64,000 nt of DNA from a virus (Duplodnaviria; Caudoviricetes), in IMG/VR virus record IMGVR_UViG_3300033407_000005, positions 11,735 through 75,734 of that record. One strand, given 5' to 3'. The position numbers were made by a program, and so were the translations under genes. Below are positions 7,119 to 46,166 of this stretch, piece after piece. The notes beneath the pieces are model-generated. The model saw only the letters and a list, made by a program, of their open reading frames with translations. It ran no database searches and was not told the DNA's origin. The first letter of the stretch is position 1, and every line of letters begins with the position of its first letter.

Positions 7119-7170
7119 TTCAATCAACGTGAAATTTCTCTTGTAAAACTTCAAAAGGCGTGAATATAAT
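7119..7170 (+). promoter_or_regulatory. Early promoter TTGTAA-18-TATAAT with operators at 7119-7133 and 7150-7164
   Basis: ttcaatcaacgtgaa and ttcaaaaggcgtgaa; the second lies between the -35 and -10 boxes. Confidence 0.75.
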
Positions 7171-7267
7171 CCCCCCCACTCGCGAACAACCTCTCTCCTG
7201 GAGGTGATCATGCGGCCAGCACCCGGGAAAGCCGGGTGCACCGCTCGCGAGGGAGGGGAGGCCCGAC

Positions 7268-9013: not shown

Positions 9014-9481
9014 ATGCGCACCAAACGGCTGTCGAAAGAGCAGAAGTTACAGCTCCCCGCAGTGCTGGCCGCAATCGGCGGCGCCGCGACTATCGACGAG
9101 CTGGAAGAGGCATTTCAGGCCGGGCATCGCGCGCTCGACGATCACCCGTTCTCGACGGCTTGGAATGAACGCGGCAACGCGATGCGCGCCCGCGGTTGGG
9201 ATTTGATTGAAGCTGATCCTCAAGGCCACCTGATCCCGCGCCTCGGCGAGCGCCATAAGTTGTCAGTCGCTGGCGAGACGACGCGCGTCGGGTACGGACA
9301 TAACGCCGCCGGCGTGCGGTGGGTTTGGGCTGAAGCCGAAGCGTGGGCTATCGGGCACCTGAAATCGCATGGCGTCGCCGAAGAAACGGCCAAGACCGTC
9401 TGGGGATGGTGCTTTGAATATCCCCATCGCGCTCTAAAGGTTCTTCGCAGGCGAGTGAAAGAACCATGCTTATCCGGTTGA
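9014..9481 (+). CDS. Phage hypothetical protein; its stop codon lies inside a cassette TIR
   Basis: RBS ggaggagg; ends KEPCLSG* within CATGCTTATCCGGTTGA. Confidence 0.65.
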   Translation: MRTKRLSKEQKLQLPAVLAAIGGAATIDELEEAFQAGHRALDDHPFSTAWNERGNAMRARGWDLIEADPQGHLIPRLGERHKLSVAGETTRVGYGHNAAGVRWVWAEAEAWAIGHLKSHGVAEETAKTVWGWCFEYPHRALKVLRRRVKEPCLSG

Positions 9482-9899
9482 CACCCACACTACCTCTAGG
9501 AGTTAGGAAATGTCCGAAACCCGCGAATTTCCGACAGCCGCCATCGCCTCGCTTTCGACAGGCACCTTGCTGTGCAAGTTCAGCGACATACACGAGGCCG
9601 CTGAGTATTTGATGGGCCACCCAATCTGGACGCATCAATTCGCCGATAAGCAGCTTTTCGCTGATATGCGAGCGATGATCATCGAACAGTGCCCTGGAAT
9701 GCCCGCGAGAGACGGCCAAATCACGCCTGAGAACTGGCGCGAGAAGCTCGCCGAGTTGGTCGCGGAATTAGGCCCCACACAGACAATCCGCAAAGGGGCC
9801 GGGTTGACCGCGATGCTGCCGACTGACGGCATCCCAGAGCACGTCGAATTGCTCGTGGTCAATGTTCCTTAAGGGTGGGTAACAACCGGATGAAGCATG
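9465..9899 (+). mobile_element. TIR-bounded single-gene cassette A1 (no transposase)
   Basis: Ends catgcttatccggttgacaccc / gggtaacaaccggatgaagcatg; flanked by gaaagaac at 9457-9464 and 9900-9907. Confidence 0.8.
9510..9872 (+). CDS. Cargo hypothetical protein of cassette A1
   Basis: 120 aa, RBS ctaggag, visibly lower GC than flanks. Confidence 0.8.
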   Translation: MSETREFPTAAIASLSTGTLLCKFSDIHEAAEYLMGHPIWTHQFADKQLFADMRAMIIEQCPGMPARDGQITPENWREKLAELVAELGPTQTIRKGAGLTAMLPTDGIPEHVELLVVNVP

Positions 9900-9907
9900 G
9901 AAAGAAC

Positions 9908-10499
9908 CATGCTTATCCGGTTGACACCCAAGAAACCTTATACCCACTACATCTAGGAGCGGCAAATGAACGTCAAAAAGCTCTACGAAATCCTTCGCGA
10001 GACAACTGTCCAACTGCGCAAGGGTGAAGTTTACGAAGGGACGCCAGAGCTTGTGGAACAAGCCAAGCGTGGCGACGAATTGAAGGGCGGCGGCGTTCTT
10101 GAAGTCTACGCCATGCCTCATGTCGCCGATGCCAATCCCGACATCGAAAAGGTCGATCTCGAATTTCTCGTAATCGGCGTCAATAAGGCCATCGCTGAAA
10201 CGCGTAAGGCCGAATTGATCGAAATTCTTAAGGATTATCCTCAACCGGAGCGCCTTGCGGGCGGCCCGTCCTACATCGAAGTCGGTGCAGAGATCGGCGA
10301 TCAAGGCGCGGCCTTCCAACTTTTTGCGCTCGGGAAAGTGCTCGGGCTTTGGGACGTAATCACGCCCGCGACGATGGGATTCGCGGGCGCGGAAGCGCGC
10401 CAGATGGCAGGCAGCGGTTTTGTCATGATGACGGGCTTCAAAGTGGCGGCCTAGGGGTAGTGGGTATGGGAGCGGTTGGGTGTCAACCGGATAAGCATG
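9908..10499 (+). mobile_element. TIR-bounded single-gene cassette A2, tandem to A1
   Basis: About 50-bp imperfect TIRs; flanked by gaaagaac at 9900-9907 and 10500-10507. Confidence 0.85.
9966..10454 (+). CDS. Cargo hypothetical protein of cassette A2
   Basis: 162 aa, RBS ctaggag. Confidence 0.8.
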   Translation: MNVKKLYEILRETTVQLRKGEVYEGTPELVEQAKRGDELKGGGVLEVYAMPHVADANPDIEKVDLEFLVIGVNKAIAETRKAELIEILKDYPQPERLAGGPSYIEVGAEIGDQGAAFQLFALGKVLGLWDVITPATMGFAGAEARQMAGSGFVMMTGFKVAA

Positions 10500-10509
10500 G
10501 AAAGAACCG

Positions 10510-10853: not shown

Positions 10854-11369
10854 GGGAATTATATAGATGACTTCCTCTGCCGAAATTTACGCCATTTCGC
10901 TCTGGCAGCCGTGGGCATCCCTGATCGCGATCGGGGCCAAGCCATTCGAGACGCGCGACTGGTTCCCGCCGAAGTGGCTTATCGGGAAGCGAATAGCGAT
11001 CCATGCCGCAATCAAGGCGATGCCGCGAGACGCGGAGGATCAACACGATTTCACCGAGGCGTTCGGCGGCCGAGGGTGGCGGGCCGTCGTGCCGAAGGGC
11101 GCGATCGTATGCACGGCGATCCTCGCTGGCGCTTACCAATGCGGCCATTCTGACCGCGAGAGCGTGAACGTGGTCCGGGCGATAACAGGATCGCGGGCAC
11201 TTAACCGCATCGCGCTCGATACGTTCGGGGACTATGCGCCCGATCGTGTCGCGTGGTGGCTGACGGACATCGAGCCGCTTGATCCGCCCATCCCAGAAAA
11301 GGGGCATCAAGGTTTTTGGAAGTTGAACGGACTCCTGGCATGACGCAGGTAGTCAAGTATGTAATTCCC
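10854..11369 (+). mobile_element. IS1595-like TIR cassette B1 carrying the ASCH gene
   Basis: gggaattatatagatgacttcc / ggtagtcaagtatgtaattccc (18 of 22 match); 8-bp TSD aaaggaag at 10846-10853 and 11370-11377. Confidence 0.8.
10867..11343 (+). CDS. ASCH-domain protein
   Basis: AISLWQPWASLIAIGAKPFETRDW...IAIHAA...KGHQGFW. Confidence 0.9.
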   Translation: MTSSAEIYAISLWQPWASLIAIGAKPFETRDWFPPKWLIGKRIAIHAAIKAMPRDAEDQHDFTEAFGGRGWRAVVPKGAIVCTAILAGAYQCGHSDRESVNVVRAITGSRALNRIALDTFGDYAPDRVAWWLTDIEPLDPPIPEKGHQGFWKLNGLLA

Positions 11370-13196: not shown

Positions 13197-13212
13197 CATG
13201 CTTATCCGGTTG
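13197..13212 (+). repeat. Solo left end of TIR family A
   Basis: Exact catgcttatccggttg immediately upstream of ORF 13230; no clear partner end. Confidence 0.7.
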
Positions 13213-13229
13213 TCGCTCAACGAGGCTAG

Positions 13230-13721
13230 ATGTTGATGACCAAAAAAGCACGACAATCTCTCATTGATTTCCTGCTGGCGTGTGCCCATCGGCGGGTTGA
13301 TGCGCGGGCGGCGGTTACTCCGTGCTTCTATTACGAGTGTCGCGAGTGCGGCGGCTCTGATCTAAACCGAGAAGATTTGCACGTCCGACCGACGCTCGCT
13401 GGGGTGACGCACAGGCCCAACTGTCTTGTCGGGCAGTACCGCGCTATCGCAGAGAATGACATGCTCACCACGGAAGCAAACACACAACTGATCGCGGAAC
13501 GCGATGCGATGAAGGGGCTGATGAAGAGACGAGCAGTTTTCATTCTTGGACTGTTGTGGAATGCGGCCAAGAAGCAGGAAGCGATTGAGAGAGAAGTCGC
13601 CGGGGAGCGGGAGGCGCGGCACAAACTAGAAGCCGCACTCACCGGGAAAGACAAAGCGATGGGCGTGCTGTTCGAGCGGCTGACAGCTGCGGGCGTCGAT
13701 TGCTCCGACCTGATCCCATAG
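13230..13721 (+). CDS. Phage hypothetical protein with CxxC and coiled coil
   Basis: YECRECGG; coiled-coil C-terminus. Confidence 0.65.
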   Translation: MLMTKKARQSLIDFLLACAHRRVDARAAVTPCFYYECRECGGSDLNREDLHVRPTLAGVTHRPNCLVGQYRAIAENDMLTTEANTQLIAERDAMKGLMKRRAVFILGLLWNAAKKQEAIEREVAGEREARHKLEAALTGKDKAMGVLFERLTAAGVDCSDLIP

Positions 13722-16479: not shown

Positions 16480-16817
16480 GGGAATTATATACATGACTTC
16501 CTCGAACTCAGGAGAAAAGCAGATGCTTGACAAGCTCGGTAACGTCATGCGCGGCGCGGAAATTGACCGCGAGGTTATAGACAGCGGTCTCGCGGTCCTC
16601 ACGCGACAGGTGCGCGAAACATGGCTTGCGACCGACTATCCAAAGGCTATGCGCAGTGATGGCGCTCAATTTAGGCACGCTTGCCTTCACGCGACCAAGG
16701 CGATCGGCAAAATCACCGCGTTGATCGATCATGCCGATCACGAACGCCTTGACGACCCAAGAAGCCCTGGCCGCGAGCCTAGGGCCATTAGGCGAGGAAG
16801 TCATGTATATAATTCCC
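16480..16817 (+). mobile_element. IS1595-like TIR cassette B2 (338 bp)
   Basis: Perfect 25-bp TIR gggaattatatacatgacttcctcg; 8-bp TSD ctaaattt at 16472-16479 and 16818-16825. Confidence 0.9.
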
Positions 16818-26723: not shown

Positions 26724-27593
26724 CTATAGCTGGTCAATCTGCGACGAGAACGACCGCAGCGCAAAGAATGGGTTTGAGATCGGGCTGTCCCTTGAGATCG
26801 TGCCGTAAATAGCTTCTTTCTCAAGATTGTACGTGTCGTCGGGGAACATAACGACTACCAAGGGCTTTGAACGCCCCTTGATAAGTACAAGGCCGAGCAC
26901 CTTGCTGCGTACCTCCGCCTCGGGCAAAACCGTGAAACCAAGATTGAGCCGGCGGCGGGTCATCCGCTCGGTGAAATAGGTCGAGCCTCCCGGAACCCGC
27001 GAGACATCGCTTTCGTCGATGGCCGTCCATTCCCAGCCGGGCGCAAGCCGGTCCTCCGCCGGTTCCCACACCTCGCAGGCGCCGAAGCAGCCGATCTGCA
27101 GCGGGGTCGAGCTGGTCGGATCAATGAATTCGACCTTGATGTACCGGCAGGAGATCGGGGCCGCCGGGACCAGGATGCGCGGATAGCCGAGCTTTTCGTA
27201 CTCGTCGGGCATGTAGACGTGGGTGAGGGCGAGCTCGCCCCAGGGGTTCGCCTCGAACGGTGTGCTGCCGTCGGGCGGCCAGCAGGTCGTCCAGTCGGTA
27301 TCGTAGGTGTTGGTGACGAAGGCCGGGTCGTTGCCGGCGCGCAGCCGCATGATCCCGAGCGACGTTGCCCGCAGCTGGGCGAAAAAGAACAGGCCGACGA
27401 TGCGGGCGTACCCCAGGTCGACGGTGAACTGGGTCGAGCCCCAATCGAGGTTGGTCACCGCCTCGGCGACGAGCTGCGGGCGATGGTCGATGAGGTTGAC
27501 CAGCGGCAGGCCGGGTTGCCAGACACCGCCCGCGAGGCTCGCCGCCGGGTCCTGCAGCCAGTCGCGGCGAGAGATCAGGATGCGGCGCGCCAT
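26724..27593 (-). CDS. Distal tail-like protein
   Basis: Position after tail genes; QIGCFGA...W...GWEW...D.S pattern. Confidence 0.7.
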   Translation of the reverse strand: MARRILISRRDWLQDPAASLAGGVWQPGLPLVNLIDHRPQLVAEAVTNLDWGSTQFTVDLGYARIVGLFFFAQLRATSLGIMRLRAGNDPAFVTNTYDTDWTTCWPPDGSTPFEANPWGELALTHVYMPDEYEKLGYPRILVPAAPISCRYIKVEFIDPTSSTPLQIGCFGACEVWEPAEDRLAPGWEWTAIDESDVSRVPGGSTYFTERMTRRRLNLGFTVLPEAEVRSKVLGLVLIKGRSKPLVVVMFPDDTYNLEKEAIYGTISRDSPISNPFFALRSFSSQIDQL

Positions 27594-27784
27594 CAGCACT
27601 CCTCTTTCTGAGGAGGCCAGCACCCCGTCCAGCCGCTATCGTAAACATCGCCGACGCGCGAGGCGTCGACTCCTGGCCGAACGGTGAGCATTCCGGTGAT
27701 CGGCACAGCCCATGTCCCGCCGCGCAATGGCAACGATGCGTCACCTTGCCAGTCGCGGCGGCTTATGAGAATCCGGCGCGCCAT
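27593..27784 (-). pseudogene. Internally deleted duplicate of the 5' end of 26724..27593
   Basis: MARRILISRRDW...YDSGWTGCWPP. Confidence 0.65.
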
Positions 27785-27794
27785 CAGTACGATC

Positions 27795-28136
27795 CATGCT
27801 ATCCGGTTAAGACCCATGAACACGACTGCTTGTGTTTTGTAGTTTTTCTTCCAGATTTTCAACGCGCCTAAGCGCATACATTGTTGGACGCGAAACTGTT
27901 TCGATAGGTCCTGACATAAAAGCCCCTTCACAGGTTATCCCTGCGTCGTGAAGACGCTTACAGATGCAAGAGGGGCAGAGTAAACCGCCCTCGTCGCCAC
28001 TCGGAGAGATACCTCTCCATACCGAAAGGGGAATAATCAAGTCAGGGAAACCATGATCATTTCCATATGGGCGTTTGCAGTCGTGGCACGCGGCATTCAT
28101 CGATCAACTCCTAGTGCCTGTGTGTGACAACCGGAT
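27795..28136 (-). mobile_element. Degenerate family A cassette (A3) in the tail operon
   Basis: Minus strand atccggttgtcacac...ctaggag-ATG...TAA-ccggatagcatgg. Confidence 0.7.
27807..28100 (-). CDS. Cys-rich cargo protein of A3
   Basis: CHDC...LLCPSCICKRL, lower GC. Confidence 0.7.
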   Translation of the reverse strand: MNAACHDCKRPYGNDHGFPDLIIPLSVWRGISPSGDEGGLLCPSCICKRLHDAGITCEGAFMSGPIETVSRPTMYALRRVENLEEKLQNTSSRVHGS

Positions 28137-28139
28137 CCT

Positions 28140-29888
28140 TTAATACAGGCTCGCGACCGGCCCGAGAGCGGTTGTGAAGGTGGTCGGGGCGAGGGCGGCA
28201 TTGGCGACAAACCCGGTCGCATAGTCCTGCGCGGTCAGCTTCCCGGCGCCGCAATTGCCCTCCGTATGCGTCGAACCACGAACCGTCGCATTGTCGTATA
28301 AGGTCAGAACGTAATAGGTCGCCGGCCCGGCCGCGGCATAAGCGCCGCCGGTGAAGGCGATGCGCTGATAAACGCCGGCGGCGCCCGCAACGGCGGTGGA
28401 GGCCGAAGTCTTGAGGATGTTGCCTGCCACATCGCCGAGCCCGACCTTGACGTTGCCCGAGGCAACCGACCCGCCGCGGATCGCGATACCGGTCAATGTC
28501 GCGTTGGCGGGAACGAATATCTCGGCGGCATAGACTTCCGTGGCGACCGGCGTCTGGTCGGTGAAGGCCGCGGCCGCGCCATTCGATCCAACGCCGCAGG
28601 ATGCCCAATTGCGCGGCGATACCGAAAATCCGCCGGCAGCCGCGACGCCGCCGGTTCCGGTAATTTTCCCCTCGACCGTCAGGTTGTTGACCCCCGGATC
28701 GGCCATCGTCGTGCCGAGGTACAACCCGCCGCTCGCGTTCAGCCGCATGCGGCCCGCGAGCGAACCGGCCGTGTTCATCGTCCAGAAGTCGAGCCGCGTC
28801 GGTACTATGTCCGCCGAAACAGTGCCAACCACCGTACCAAGTATTTGCGCTCCCACCTTGTAGATCGTTCCGTCCGAACCAGCCATCTGGATAGACATCA
28901 CCTGGTCGGCGGCCGCCACCGCCGTATGGCTGCCGACCGTTGCGTTTCTTGATTTGGTGAACTGCAGGCCGGGGCCGGCCGTATTTGCCGAGTGCCTGCC
29001 GAACTGCACGCCGGGGTTTGAATAGAACTGATATTGCCTGGCAAAACCATCGGAGCCAACAAATGATGCCGTAGCCCCACCGACGAAAGTGCCGCTCTGC
29101 GTCTGCGTGCCCGAGAACACCGGGCTCGCGATCGTCGGCGCGGTGTTCATCACGAATGTCGATCCGGTCCCGGTCTGCGAGGCAATCGCCGTCGCGTTCC
29201 CGGTCGAGGTGATCGGCCCCGTCAGGTCGGCGTTGGTCGTGACGTTGCCAGCGGTCAGCCCCGAGGCCGTCCCGGTCAGGAACGTCCCGACCCCTGATGA
29301 CGGCGTGCCGAGCGCACCACCCGACACGAGAACCGCGCTCGTCAGGATACCGCCGTCCTTGATGAGCTTGCCGGTCGTGCCGTCGAACGCGGCGATGCGG
29401 TCGTCTACGGCGGACGCCGGCCCGACGACATCACCAGACCCGGCCGCACACGCCCCCGCCGAGGTCGCGAGAACCCCTCCGGCAGTCAGCCCGACACAGC
29501 GATCCTGCGTGCCGCTTGCCGCTCCCGACAAGACGATCGCCGTACCGCTGAAATCCGGGTCGCCGCTGAACGTACCGGACAGCGCGTCGCCATTGTTCTT
29601 GAGAAAGGCACCCGCTGATCCAACGTTTATTCCCAATGCGGTTGCGACTCCGGTGCCAAGGCCGGAAAGCTCGGAAACTCCGAGCGTCCCGACCGTAATA
29701 GCAGCGCCCGCGCTCTCCTGCTTGAGCACCTGCCCCGCACCGCCCGTCGCGCTCAGATCGGCTTCAAGTCCACCCAAATTCAAAGCGAGCGGTGCGGGAA
29801 ACGAGTTGACGACCTGCGTCTGCGACAGCCCAGGAACCGGCCAAAGCGAGGCCAGCAAGCCAAGAGCAGCGATGATCCTCGATTTCAT
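28140..29888 (-). CDS. Tail fibre-like protein with signal-peptide-like N-terminus
   Basis: G/A/T/S-rich, GDVVGPASAVDDRIAAFDGTTGKLIKD fibre motif. Confidence 0.75.
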   Translation of the reverse strand: MKSRIIAALGLLASLWPVPGLSQTQVVNSFPAPLALNLGGLEADLSATGGAGQVLKQESAGAAITVGTLGVSELSGLGTGVATALGINVGSAGAFLKNNGDALSGTFSGDPDFSGTAIVLSGAASGTQDRCVGLTAGGVLATSAGACAAGSGDVVGPASAVDDRIAAFDGTTGKLIKDGGILTSAVLVSGGALGTPSSGVGTFLTGTASGLTAGNVTTNADLTGPITSTGNATAIASQTGTGSTFVMNTAPTIASPVFSGTQTQSGTFVGGATASFVGSDGFARQYQFYSNPGVQFGRHSANTAGPGLQFTKSRNATVGSHTAVAAADQVMSIQMAGSDGTIYKVGAQILGTVVGTVSADIVPTRLDFWTMNTAGSLAGRMRLNASGGLYLGTTMADPGVNNLTVEGKITGTGGVAAAGGFSVSPRNWASCGVGSNGAAAAFTDQTPVATEVYAAEIFVPANATLTGIAIRGGSVASGNVKVGLGDVAGNILKTSASTAVAGAAGVYQRIAFTGGAYAAAGPATYYVLTLYDNATVRGSTHTEGNCGAGKLTAQDYATGFVANAALAPTTFTTALGPVASLY

Positions 29889-30349
29889 CAAAGCACACCC
29901 CAGTTGCCGGTTGCACTCTCGACAGCCCATTGGTCGACGACAGAAGTCGGCACCAAACAAAGCGCGCAAAAGGGTTGATTATTCTGAATATACCCGGCCG
30001 CGGCGCTGTTGGTCACGTCATTCGCGATCTTCGCCGGTGACGGGGCTTTTATCCGCAGCATCTGCGCCGCCGTGACCATGAAATAAAACTTCAGATTAGG
30101 GTCCGCTACCCATGGCGGAAGCGTCAAAATCACGATGCCGCCGGCCCCGGTGTTGTCGAATACGTTGCCCGCGTCCGTGGTAAGAAGCGTGTAGTTCAGG
30201 GTCTTGGTGGTGAGACGCCTCGCGGCCTGCAATCCGCCGCCCGGTATCTTCCTGGTCGCGCCGCCGTTGATGAAGACGAAATACCCGGTGTCCGGGTAGG
30301 GCGGGCTTTGCGTCGGCCGCGTCGGGACATATGCCTTCAAGGCCGACAT
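29888..30349 (-). CDS. Minor tail protein
   Basis: KTLNYTLLTTDAG...LTLP fibre-associated motif. Confidence 0.7.
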   Translation of the reverse strand: MSALKAYVPTRPTQSPPYPDTGYFVFINGGATRKIPGGGLQAARRLTTKTLNYTLLTTDAGNVFDNTGAGGIVILTLPPWVADPNLKFYFMVTAAQMLRIKAPSPAKIANDVTNSAAAGYIQNNQPFCALCLVPTSVVDQWAVESATGNWGVL

Positions 30350-32076
30350 CAGGCGTCCTCCGTCAGCGGCGTAACAACGTCGTCCTCGAACAGGACGGCG
30401 AACCCGTCATCCTCGGTCAGGGCGCCGGGGTGCGCGATGGCATAGAGCGCCGCCGTTGGCAGCTGCTCCGACCACAGCTGCACCGCGTTGGCCCCGCCGC
30501 CCACTGAGCGCAGCACCGAATGCACCCGCGCGACGGCGTTGATCATCCGGTATTGGACCCCGATCGTGTCGTAGAGCGCCGGCATCTCGTCGGACGCCAG
30601 CAGATTGTCGCGGTCCACAACCTCGTAGAGCTTCCGGGCGACGGTCCAGGCCGGGATCAGCCGGGCGCCGATCGAGAGGGCGTCGGCTTCGTTGTTGACC
30701 AGCGAGGGGATCAGCGGCACGTCGACCGCGAGCGGTTCCGCCGTCTTGATCGATGCATCCTCAAAGACCACCACGGCGATGCCGGTCGATCGCCACTTCT
30801 GCTGATCCGCCTCGCTCACCGCCGTATCGGGCGGGAAATTGGTCTGCGGGTGCTCGTTGCCCGAATGCTCGATCCGGATCCGCCAGGCCGGCGGCACGAG
30901 CTGCGTCTGGTTCGCCGCGCCGATCGACAGCGCCGTCAATGTGCGACTCGCGGTCGTGGTGTCCGCCTGCACACCGGCGGTAACCGCGCCATCCACCATG
31001 CGTTCCGTCCACCAGCCGCCGAGCCCGCCCATGATCCGATCGAACCCGTCGAAACGGTTTACCGGGTCGGTTCCGGTGTAGAAGCCGATCAGGTACGGTG
31101 CCGCCGCGTCGAGCGCCGCCATCGCCGCCGTGTCGACCGTGCCGCCCGCCTCGGTGACGAGTGCCGTCATCAGGGCCGCGGTGGTCAGCGTCGCCCAATC
31201 GGCGCCGCGAGCGTCGCACCGGACCTCCATGCCCAAGCTGTCCTGGCCGAGTTGGAATTTTCCCGCCGCGAGGTCGGCCGACCACTCGCCATCCCCGGGC
31301 GGGCTCGCCGCCTCCTGCCAGGGAACACCGCCGACCCTGACCTCGGTAATCTCGGCGAGCGGCAGCCGCGACACCTGGTAGATCTGCGCAACGCCGTCGA
31401 TCAGCGTCGGCGCGATGCACTTGCGCTCGCCCCGCAGCTCCGGTTTCGGCCGGCCGCGCAGCGCTTCCGGCGCGTCGTCGCCGTAGAGATCGGAAACAAT
31501 CGGGCCGTCGAGCGCGGCGATGCCGGCCAGCGTCTTGATCTTGCCCGTCAGCGTGTCGTGGGTCAGCTCATCGACCCGGCCGGTGAAGACCAGCTCGAAA
31601 TCGTCGTGATCGTCGCCCGGCGCCGCCAGGTAGACCCTGAGCGCCCGCCCCTTCCAATGGTACTCGAGTTTCGGCCAGATCGTCTCGTCGAGCGCAAAGT
31701 CGATCTGCCCGGCATTGACTTCGCCGCGGAGCGGTTCGCCGTACTGCTCGCCGGAAATCCGCGTGCCGAATTGCAGCGGCACATAGAGCCGCGGGTCGTA
31801 CTGCACCCGGACGCCATCGACCGTCGCGGCCAGCGGGACGAGGCCGGAGGCCAGCCGCAGCGTCTCGACCACCGTGCCGTCGTGCAGGTCGATTTCGACG
31901 GCGACCAGGGTTTTTGGAATAACCGCGATTGGCGGGACTATCGGGACAGGGATGATCGCGGCAGGGAAAATACCCTGCGCCGGCAGGCCTTCAAACCAGA
32001 ACTTCTGATCCACGCCTTCGTTATTTGAGAAAACCGGCGAGCCATTAAACCAGAACTTTTGATCGCCGTCAGGCAC
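30349..32076 (-). CDS. Tail hub / baseplate-like protein
   Basis: Position; LRGRPKP..G...IAPTLID motif of GTA-like tail proteins. Confidence 0.7.
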   Translation of the reverse strand: MPDGDQKFWFNGSPVFSNNEGVDQKFWFEGLPAQGIFPAAIIPVPIVPPIAVIPKTLVAVEIDLHDGTVVETLRLASGLVPLAATVDGVRVQYDPRLYVPLQFGTRISGEQYGEPLRGEVNAGQIDFALDETIWPKLEYHWKGRALRVYLAAPGDDHDDFELVFTGRVDELTHDTLTGKIKTLAGIAALDGPIVSDLYGDDAPEALRGRPKPELRGERKCIAPTLIDGVAQIYQVSRLPLAEITEVRVGGVPWQEAASPPGDGEWSADLAAGKFQLGQDSLGMEVRCDARGADWATLTTAALMTALVTEAGGTVDTAAMAALDAAAPYLIGFYTGTDPVNRFDGFDRIMGGLGGWWTERMVDGAVTAGVQADTTTASRTLTALSIGAANQTQLVPPAWRIRIEHSGNEHPQTNFPPDTAVSEADQQKWRSTGIAVVVFEDASIKTAEPLAVDVPLIPSLVNNEADALSIGARLIPAWTVARKLYEVVDRDNLLASDEMPALYDTIGVQYRMINAVARVHSVLRSVGGGANAVQLWSEQLPTAALYAIAHPGALTEDDGFAVLFEDDVVTPLTEDA

Positions 32077-46080: not shown

Positions 46081-46166
46081 CCTCCGTGATCTCAATCTCA
46101 TCCGCCCCGGCCTGTCGGCTGTCGTCTACCATATCTAGCACCTGTTATGCAAAAGCTATAATTCCC

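Follow-up and report, generated by a model that had tools for sequence, protein, structure and literature searches.

The segment at 27795-28136 of the window (the whole 64-kb stretch of phage DNA analysed here) is very probably a decayed, non-autonomous cassette of the mobile-insertion-cassette type, derived from an ISAcr1-like lineage of IS1595 transposons. The repeated ends that bound it and recur elsewhere in the phage are the terminal inverted repeats of an IS1595-family DNA transposon, with the consensus CATGCTTATCCGGTTGACACACACA. Between its two ends the cassette contains one open reading frame of 97 amino acids and no transposase.

Terminal inverted repeats of an IS1595-family transposon

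Within IMG/VR contigs, at least 119 stretches contain an exact match to the 16-mer CATGCTTATCCGGTTG. Nearly all of these matches extend with ..ACACACACA, and conservation drops abruptly at the first C. Among the 103 nearest converging end pairs at the IMG/VR loci, 70 are flanked by a perfect 8/8 bp duplication, the sequence of which varies from pair to pair. We identify the ends as the terminal inverted repeats of a DNA transposon because these flanking 8-bp repeats are target-site duplications. The end pairs with a duplication correspond to 67 distinct elements, between 241 and 2223 bp in length. A transposase of the IS1595 type is encoded by each of the 16 that are at least 1.7 kb long (1.7-2.2 kb), often beside a passenger ORF. 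The 16 transposases match NF033547 with 183-185 bits (cut-off 75) and contain the DDE_Tnp_IS1595 domain (PF12762) together with the zinc ribbon Zn_Tnp_IS1595 (PF12760); the latter is N-terminal and reaches E values of 1e-9 to 8e-13 in the proteins of loci L088, L015, and L010. The 51 short elements (241-1336 bp) carry passenger genes and no transposase.

Near-identical copies are found at different positions. The 365-bp cassettes of L009 and L046 are 98.3% identical and occupy different targets (CTATATTT vs AATGGATA), and the 1.7-kb copies of L070, L093, and L112, at 90-95% identity, each have a duplication of their own. Because near-identical cassettes occupy different targets, the family has moved recently. 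The sequence-only reading, an earlier inspection of the letters of this DNA, had taken the shared ends as a sign of a mobile family and not of a local duplication. This proposal is supported by at least 67 distinct elements sharing the same ends and exact 8-bp target duplications, with the IS1595 transposase of the long members, and with the near-identical cassettes at differing targets.

Single viral records contain 4-9 ends, and a reversed control pattern gave none. The ends are also present in bacterial genomes, mainly metagenome-assembled genomes (MAGs) of Alphaproteobacteria, with a variant in Terriglobia. In 596 Gb of bacterial sequence, about 100 of the 129 matches to the 16-mer are chance matches, as expected, and about 25 show the extended consensus. 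In a Terriglobia MAG, the end variant CATGCTTATCCGGTTGTTTCAGCAAGCC... is found in many copies (L156:6344-6477 and other contigs), including three tandem copies 59 nt apart. The targets across the family are A/T-rich 8-mers, for example GAAAGAAC, GGAGAAAC, and ATGTATAT, often lying where the downstream gene has its ribosome-binding site or start codon, or next to it; the duplication then provides both the cargo side and the host gene with a copy. Searches for empty sites, made with the target of the A1 and A2 cassettes (described below), with the L020 element, and by an all-against-all comparison of the retrieved loci, revealed none for any element.

Other types of element were considered for these ends. 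Direct reading revealed no attC-type core sites in them, and an integron gene cassette, which would insert through an integrase and leave no target duplication, is contradicted by the 8-bp target duplications and the DDE transposase of the family. PeSL-like and RNase III-hairpin readings, prompted by the palindrome that adjoining ends form, were dropped together with the attC reading because 8-bp duplications and transposase-bearing members were seen.

Family ends in the window

An end profile was built from 115 ends validated by target duplications, all taken from other contigs to avoid circularity. In the 64-kb window, exactly seven sites stand out with this profile, and the next match has an E value of 5. 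The sites at 9908 and 9465 on the plus strand and at 10499 on the minus strand have E values of about 1e-8 to 1e-7, followed by 13197 on the plus strand (E 1e-5). The fifth and sixth sites, at 28136 on the minus strand (E 4.5e-4, aligned to profile positions 8-27 only) and at 27800 on the plus strand (E 2.3e-3), are the two ends of the tail-operon cassette; they converge and bracket one ORF. The seventh site is at 9899 on the minus strand (E 0.016). The profile independently matches both ends around ORF 27807-28100, which confirms the earlier placement of this ORF between ends of the A1/A2 type.

Two copies that look intact lie side by side on the plus strand. Cassette A1 (9465-9899) carries a DUF7736 cargo and has the target GAAAGAAC at 9457-9464 and 9900-9907. 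Cassette A2 (9908-10499) carries a 162-aa cargo between 51-nt inverted repeats and is followed by GAAAGAAC again at 10500-10507, so that this 8-mer flanks the pair of cassettes and also separates them. The ends of both cassettes consist of CATGCTTATCCGGTTGACAC and its inverted copy, with an internal CTAGGAG ahead of the ATG in each.

A solo intact left end, CATGCTTATCCGGTTGTCGCTCAA..., is located at 13197-13224 on the plus strand (nhmmer E 1e-5), and its CTAGATG provides the start codon of ORF 13230-13721. The earlier description of this end as exact holds for its first 16 nt, which are identical to those of A1/A2, whereas 3 of the next 6 nt differ. No right end was found as its partner, and the flanking CACTGAAG is not repeated; it is therefore a one-ended remnant of the same IS1595 family lineage. 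All four cargo genes of the window are co-directional with their neighbours, as previously noted from the sequence.

No IS1595 transposase is present in the entire phage record, including the region beside an end at 46157. The latter belongs to a second, different type of IS1595-like end, GGGAATTATA, which is found in the window at 10854-11369, 16480-16817, 46157-46166, and 7165-7174. The ends of this type at 10854 and 11360 bracket an ASCH gene with the duplication AAAGGAAG, while 46157 and perhaps 7165 are solo ends.

Structure of the tail-operon cassette

The cassette is positioned on the minus strand between a tail-fibre ORF (28140-29969, minus strand, 609 aa), whose stop codon TAA at 28142-28140 is followed by AGG, and gene X (26724-27593, minus strand), the next gene of the tail region. 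Its left terminal inverted repeat, ATCCGGTTGTCACACACAGG, is truncated and occupies 28117-28136 on the minus strand (nhmmer E 4.5e-4). The inner segment of the left end (28101-28116, minus strand) contains CTAGGAG at 28114-28108. The passenger gene extends from its ATG at 28100 to the stop codon TAA at 27809-27807 (27807-28100, minus strand). The right terminal inverted repeat, CATGGGTCTTAACCGGAT-AGCATG, is found at 27795-27818 on the minus strand with a 1-nt deletion (nhmmer E 2.3e-3), and CCGGATAGCATG forms the right-hand end of the cassette, with 27795 as its last base. The distance between the reconstructed left tip and the cargo start is 43 nt, and that between the stop and the right tip is 12 nt. 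The CTAGGAG motif, a putative Shine-Dalgarno sequence, is separated from the cargo ATG by a 7-nt spacer.

Both ends closely resemble those of other members. The left end is 88-96% identical over 25-34 nt to the left ends of L087, L118, L116, and L084. With L087 and L118 the similarity runs on through CTAGGAGTTGAT, over 34 nt, and the inner part of the L087 left end reads ...CACTAGGAGTTGAT. The right end shares 25 of 26 bases with the right end of L100, with one gap, and also aligns with the right end of L123; its segment GTCTTAACCGGATA is exact in L074, L014, and L103. The core ATCCGGTTG.CAC is undamaged in both repeats. From these sequence features we assign the cassette to the IS1595-type end family with high confidence. 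The earlier statement that the ends match A1/A2 thus stands as far as family membership is concerned; it does not extend to the left outer CATGCTT (7 nt), which is absent, or to the right repeat with its 1-nt deletion.

The 97-aa cargo is a small Cys-rich protein with the pattern CxxC...CPSCIC, in agreement with its previous description as an unrelated Cys-rich protein, and the Cys residues are invariant among its homologues. Its GC content is 49-52%, compared with about 65% in the flanks. The cargo family is widespread: at E <= 0.01 the protein has 423 homologues, and the 120 of them that were listed are 60-83% identical. No Pfam or PHROG match was obtained for it. The AF2 model has a pLDDT of 76, and a search of the PDB with this model gave no fold match at E <= 0.001, the hits being generic zinc-finger folds with E > 1. 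At 26 other viral loci, homologues of the cargo are not flanked by family ends. We therefore regard the cargo as an ordinary gene of phages, captured on a single occasion.

Ends as putative translation adaptors

Across the family, the distance between the left tip and the start of the cargo ORF is 33-60 nt, and that between its stop and the right tip is 5-66 nt. Many members take their start codon from the ATG within the conserved CTAGATGTTGA, and their N-termini begin with 'ML..'. The CTAGGAG of A1, A2, and the tail-operon cassette sits where other members read CTAGATG. The internal ribosome-binding site recognised by the sequence-only reading is indeed present, and can now be defined as a part of the conserved inner left end. 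At the opposite side, several cargo ORFs run into the right repeat, which provides their C-termini and stop codons. The TAA of the tail-operon cargo (27809-27807) is inside this repeat, within ...CTTAACCGGATAGCATG, and reads in the context ..CTTAACCGG... Since the left end holds the start codon or ribosome-binding site and the right repeat holds the stop codon, the ends seem to serve as translation adaptors as well.

No sigma70-type promoter or terminator was predicted in the window copies, and a consensus scan of 27500-28400 was empty. The TTGACA of the repeat was considered as a promoter and rejected, with no sigma70-like site called in the window copies. Family-wide, a crude and noisy count of flank orientation, with 25 co-oriented and 10 opposed cases, lends weak support to co-orientation. 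We infer that the cargoes are expressed through operon read-through.

The cargoes are diverse and mostly belong to no known family; the assigned ones include one NADAR protein, one TnpB, one DNA methylase, and the DUF7736 protein of A1. The NADAR-domain protein is the cargo of L090:127-720, and the N6/N4 DNA methylase is carried by another member in the alignment A3. The IS1595-type cassette L038:1253-2408, with the duplication ATATCAGA, has a TnpB (OrfB_IS605 and Cas12f1-like TNB) as its sole cargo, so that the nuclease of one transposon rides as the passenger of another. In addition, the element L010:400-2382 has family ends and the duplication ATCCAAAT, and contains an ORF of 307 aa (1267-2190). 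In this protein, the zinc ribbon of IS1595 and roughly 55 residues from the start of the transposase core are joined to an HNH_3 nuclease and an HTH, the DDE domain being replaced by HNH.

Decay and history of the tail-operon cassette

The left repeat is incomplete. Its outer CATGCTT is replaced by the TAA of the tail-fibre gene and AGG (28137-28142), and these outer 7 nt are invariant or nearly so in the validated ends. Beyond the right tip, direct reading places GATCGTAC (27787-27794, minus strand) at the position expected for a target duplication; no matching copy is found at the left flank, and the cassette thus has no 8-bp duplication. The cassette is decayed and probably immobile, because its left tip is lost and the target duplication is missing.

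Next to the right tip lies a 63-aa ORF (27593-27784, minus strand), which by blastn and blastp is a truncated, internally deleted paralogue of gene X. The two share 81% of bases in blastn over the first 43 nt, pre-ATG bases included, and blastp aligns them with an E value of 1e-12 and a 49-aa gap. A second island of similarity to gene X surrounds ..YD.GWT.CWPP, and the ORF also matches the N-termini of the homologues P0122-P0141, of which P0122 is the closest to gene X at 78%. This ORF is best read, from its sequence, as a recombination scar adjoining the cassette.

These features lead us to favour, with moderate confidence, a history of two steps. The cassette would have inserted just upstream of a gene X homologue, in the region of its ribosome-binding site. 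Recombination between phages would then have joined the cassette and the fragment of this homologue (X') to the end of the tail-fibre gene seen today, with loss of the left tip. Alternatively, the arrangement of the locus could reflect arrival of the cassette entirely by recombination. Most likely, the cassette arrived at its present position, or was reshaped there, by recombination between phages, and would now be fixed as an accessory gene.

The gene order in related phages was compared with that of the window. This phage has no match in the phage database by DNA or protein and no close match among viral contigs, and a profile search for relatives yielded only gene X homologues at 45-55% identity. 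In none of these relatives does the cargo precede X. Three of them have X immediately after the large upstream gene, and two have a different small ORF or an AT-rich spacer ahead of X. This arrangement points to a variable spot, although it does not amount to an exact empty site. In the distant relatives L153-L155, gene X directly follows a homologue of the 575-aa protein encoded at 30349-32076 of the window. In the window, a 153-aa ORF, the 609-aa fibre gene, the cassette, and the X' remnant lie between the 575-aa gene and X. This part of the tail module is therefore a site of variable insertion.

Proposed mechanism and alternative explanations

A cassette of this type consists of two inverted ends of about 25 nt and one passenger gene, with no transposase. 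Intact members of the family would move by cut-and-paste through a DDE transposase with an N-terminal zinc ribbon. The enzyme is expected to recognise the CATGCTTATCCGGTTGACACACACA ends and to cut the target with an 8-bp stagger, which would give the 8-bp duplication. As the phage record lacks an IS1595 transposase, movement would have required a transposase in trans, and we infer that transposase-less members depend for their movement on a full-length copy, carried either by the host chromosome or by a co-infecting phage. The 98.3% identity of L009 and L046, which occupy different targets and have no transposase, supports mobilisation in trans indirectly. After insertion, the inner left end would supply a ribosome-binding site (CTAGGAG in the tail-operon cassette) or a start codon (CTAGATG), and the right repeat would often contain the stop codon, as in this cassette. 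Read-through transcripts from the operon around the insertion, presumably the tail operon in this case, would then serve for translation of the cargo.

A broader proposal, which we put forward tentatively and consider somewhat doubtful, is that IS1595-derived cassettes form a large 'plug-and-play' shuttle of single accessory genes among soil phages. The repeats would have evolved into expression adaptors, with the ribosome-binding site or start codon on the left and the stop or last codons on the right. Very different ORFs could be swapped in and expressed wherever a cassette lands in an operon, and the cassettes would be mobilised during infection by full-length copies that reside in the host or in co-infecting phages. 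No literature description of such cassettes in phages was found, which is weak evidence that none exists.

It is very unlikely that the motifs are fixed regulatory sites, such as promoters, operators, terminators, or RNase hairpins, instead of transposon ends. Such a role would fit the TTGACA within the repeat, which some full-length members extend to TTGACA-N17-TAGTAT, the long palindrome made by adjoining right and left ends, and the use of CTAGGAG and CTAGATG as translation signals. However, regulatory sites would not explain the 70 pairs with exact 8-bp duplications of unrelated sequence, and these duplications are no artefact of a palindromic target, the 8-mers all being different. The same ends are found on transposase-coding members and in unrelated phages and bacterial genomes, and near-identical cassettes stand at different sites. 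Furthermore, the inverted 3' copy would aim an antisense promoter into the cargo, and neither promoter nor terminator is called in the window copies. An equally slight chance is given to the idea that the two ends at 27795-28136 match the family by accident and that the gene came in by illegitimate recombination as an ordinary moron. The single ends are only moderately significant (E 4.5e-4 and 2.3e-3), and the cargo family usually lacks such ends. Nevertheless, they rank fifth and sixth in the window with no sites between them and noise, they converge and bracket one ORF at distances typical of the family, and the left-end similarity continues through CTAGGAGTTGAT (34 nt).

Having accepted the ends as transposon ends, one may ask whether the cassette is still active and mobilisable and transposed straight into the tail operon. 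Both of its repeats are recognisable with the ATCCGGTTG.CAC core intact, and A1 and A2 of the same phage look intact. Loss of the left outer 7 nt, invariant or almost so in validated ends, speaks against activity, as do the lack of an 8-bp duplication, the 1-nt deletion in the right repeat, and the adjoining pseudogene remnant, which points to a recombination joint. We regard an active copy as improbable, and retain the reading of a decayed IS1595-derived cassette.

Comparison with known systems

The identification has several consequences. The repeated cassette ends of this phage are transposon ends, and not a new regulatory or recombination system. Their anatomy (ends, 8-bp duplication, and cargo frame) can guide the annotation of hundreds of such elements in metagenomic virus sequences. 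IS-derived cassettes without a transposase bring single accessory genes into phage genomes, structural operons included, and such spread is observed here among uncultured soil phages. The DNA methylase and NADAR passengers may have counter-defence roles.

The IS1595 family is defined by an 8-bp duplication, a zinc ribbon, and DDE_Tnp_IS1595 (PMC8101967). The closest named insertion sequence is ISAcr1 of Acidiphilium, to which the family transposase is 60% identical. The ends of ISAcr1, read in L276 as CTTGCCTATCCGGTTGAC, have 16 of 18 bases in common with the family sequence CATGCTTATCCGGTTGAC. ISAcr1 likewise has an 8-bp duplication (GAATCAGC), and the zinc-ribbon and DDE_Tnp_IS1595 architecture is found in both. 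We take ISAcr1 and its relatives to have the ISSod11-type end pattern nnnGCnTATC of the ISfinder tables. As read in this analysis, ISAcr1 is a plain insertion sequence of about 1.1 kb on plasmids, whereas the tail-operon cassette has no transposase, carries a passenger gene, resides in a phage tail operon, and is decayed. Passenger-carrying members of IS1595 were reportedly described by Siguier, Gagnevin and Chandler in 2009 (cited in PMC3281130), and the full-length members of the phage family resemble them in carrying passengers beside the transposase.

Mobile insertion cassettes are defined as transposase-less, passenger-carrying elements with the ends of an insertion sequence, such as MIC231 of Bacillus cereus (PMC3281130). 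The phage cassettes are similar in having IS-family ends around passengers, no transposase, and movement that would depend on an enzyme in trans. They differ in their parent, which is of the IS1595 type, whereas MIC231 is derived from IS231 (IS4 family) and is found in bacterial genomes. Unlike MIC231, the phage cassettes have repeats that give the cargo its start codon or ribosome-binding site and its stop.

The tail-operon cassette may also be compared with elements known from phages. Morons are extra genes that have inserted between conserved genes of a phage and bring their own promoter and terminator. Like a moron, the cassette is a single low-GC accessory gene between tail-region genes in the direction of the operon; unlike a moron, it is bounded by transposon ends, with no promoter or terminator predicted. 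Cassettes of this type are one concrete route by which the morons of mosaic phages can arise. The mycobacteriophage elements MPME1 and MPME2, of about 440 bp, have inverted repeats and their own small ORF, and their presence varies among phages. They resemble the cassettes as small elements bounded by inverted repeats, but have no diverse passengers. As element types, IS1595 with passengers and mobile insertion cassettes were known before; the points of moderate interest here are their occurrence in phages, the ends that resemble adaptors, and the variety of the cargoes.
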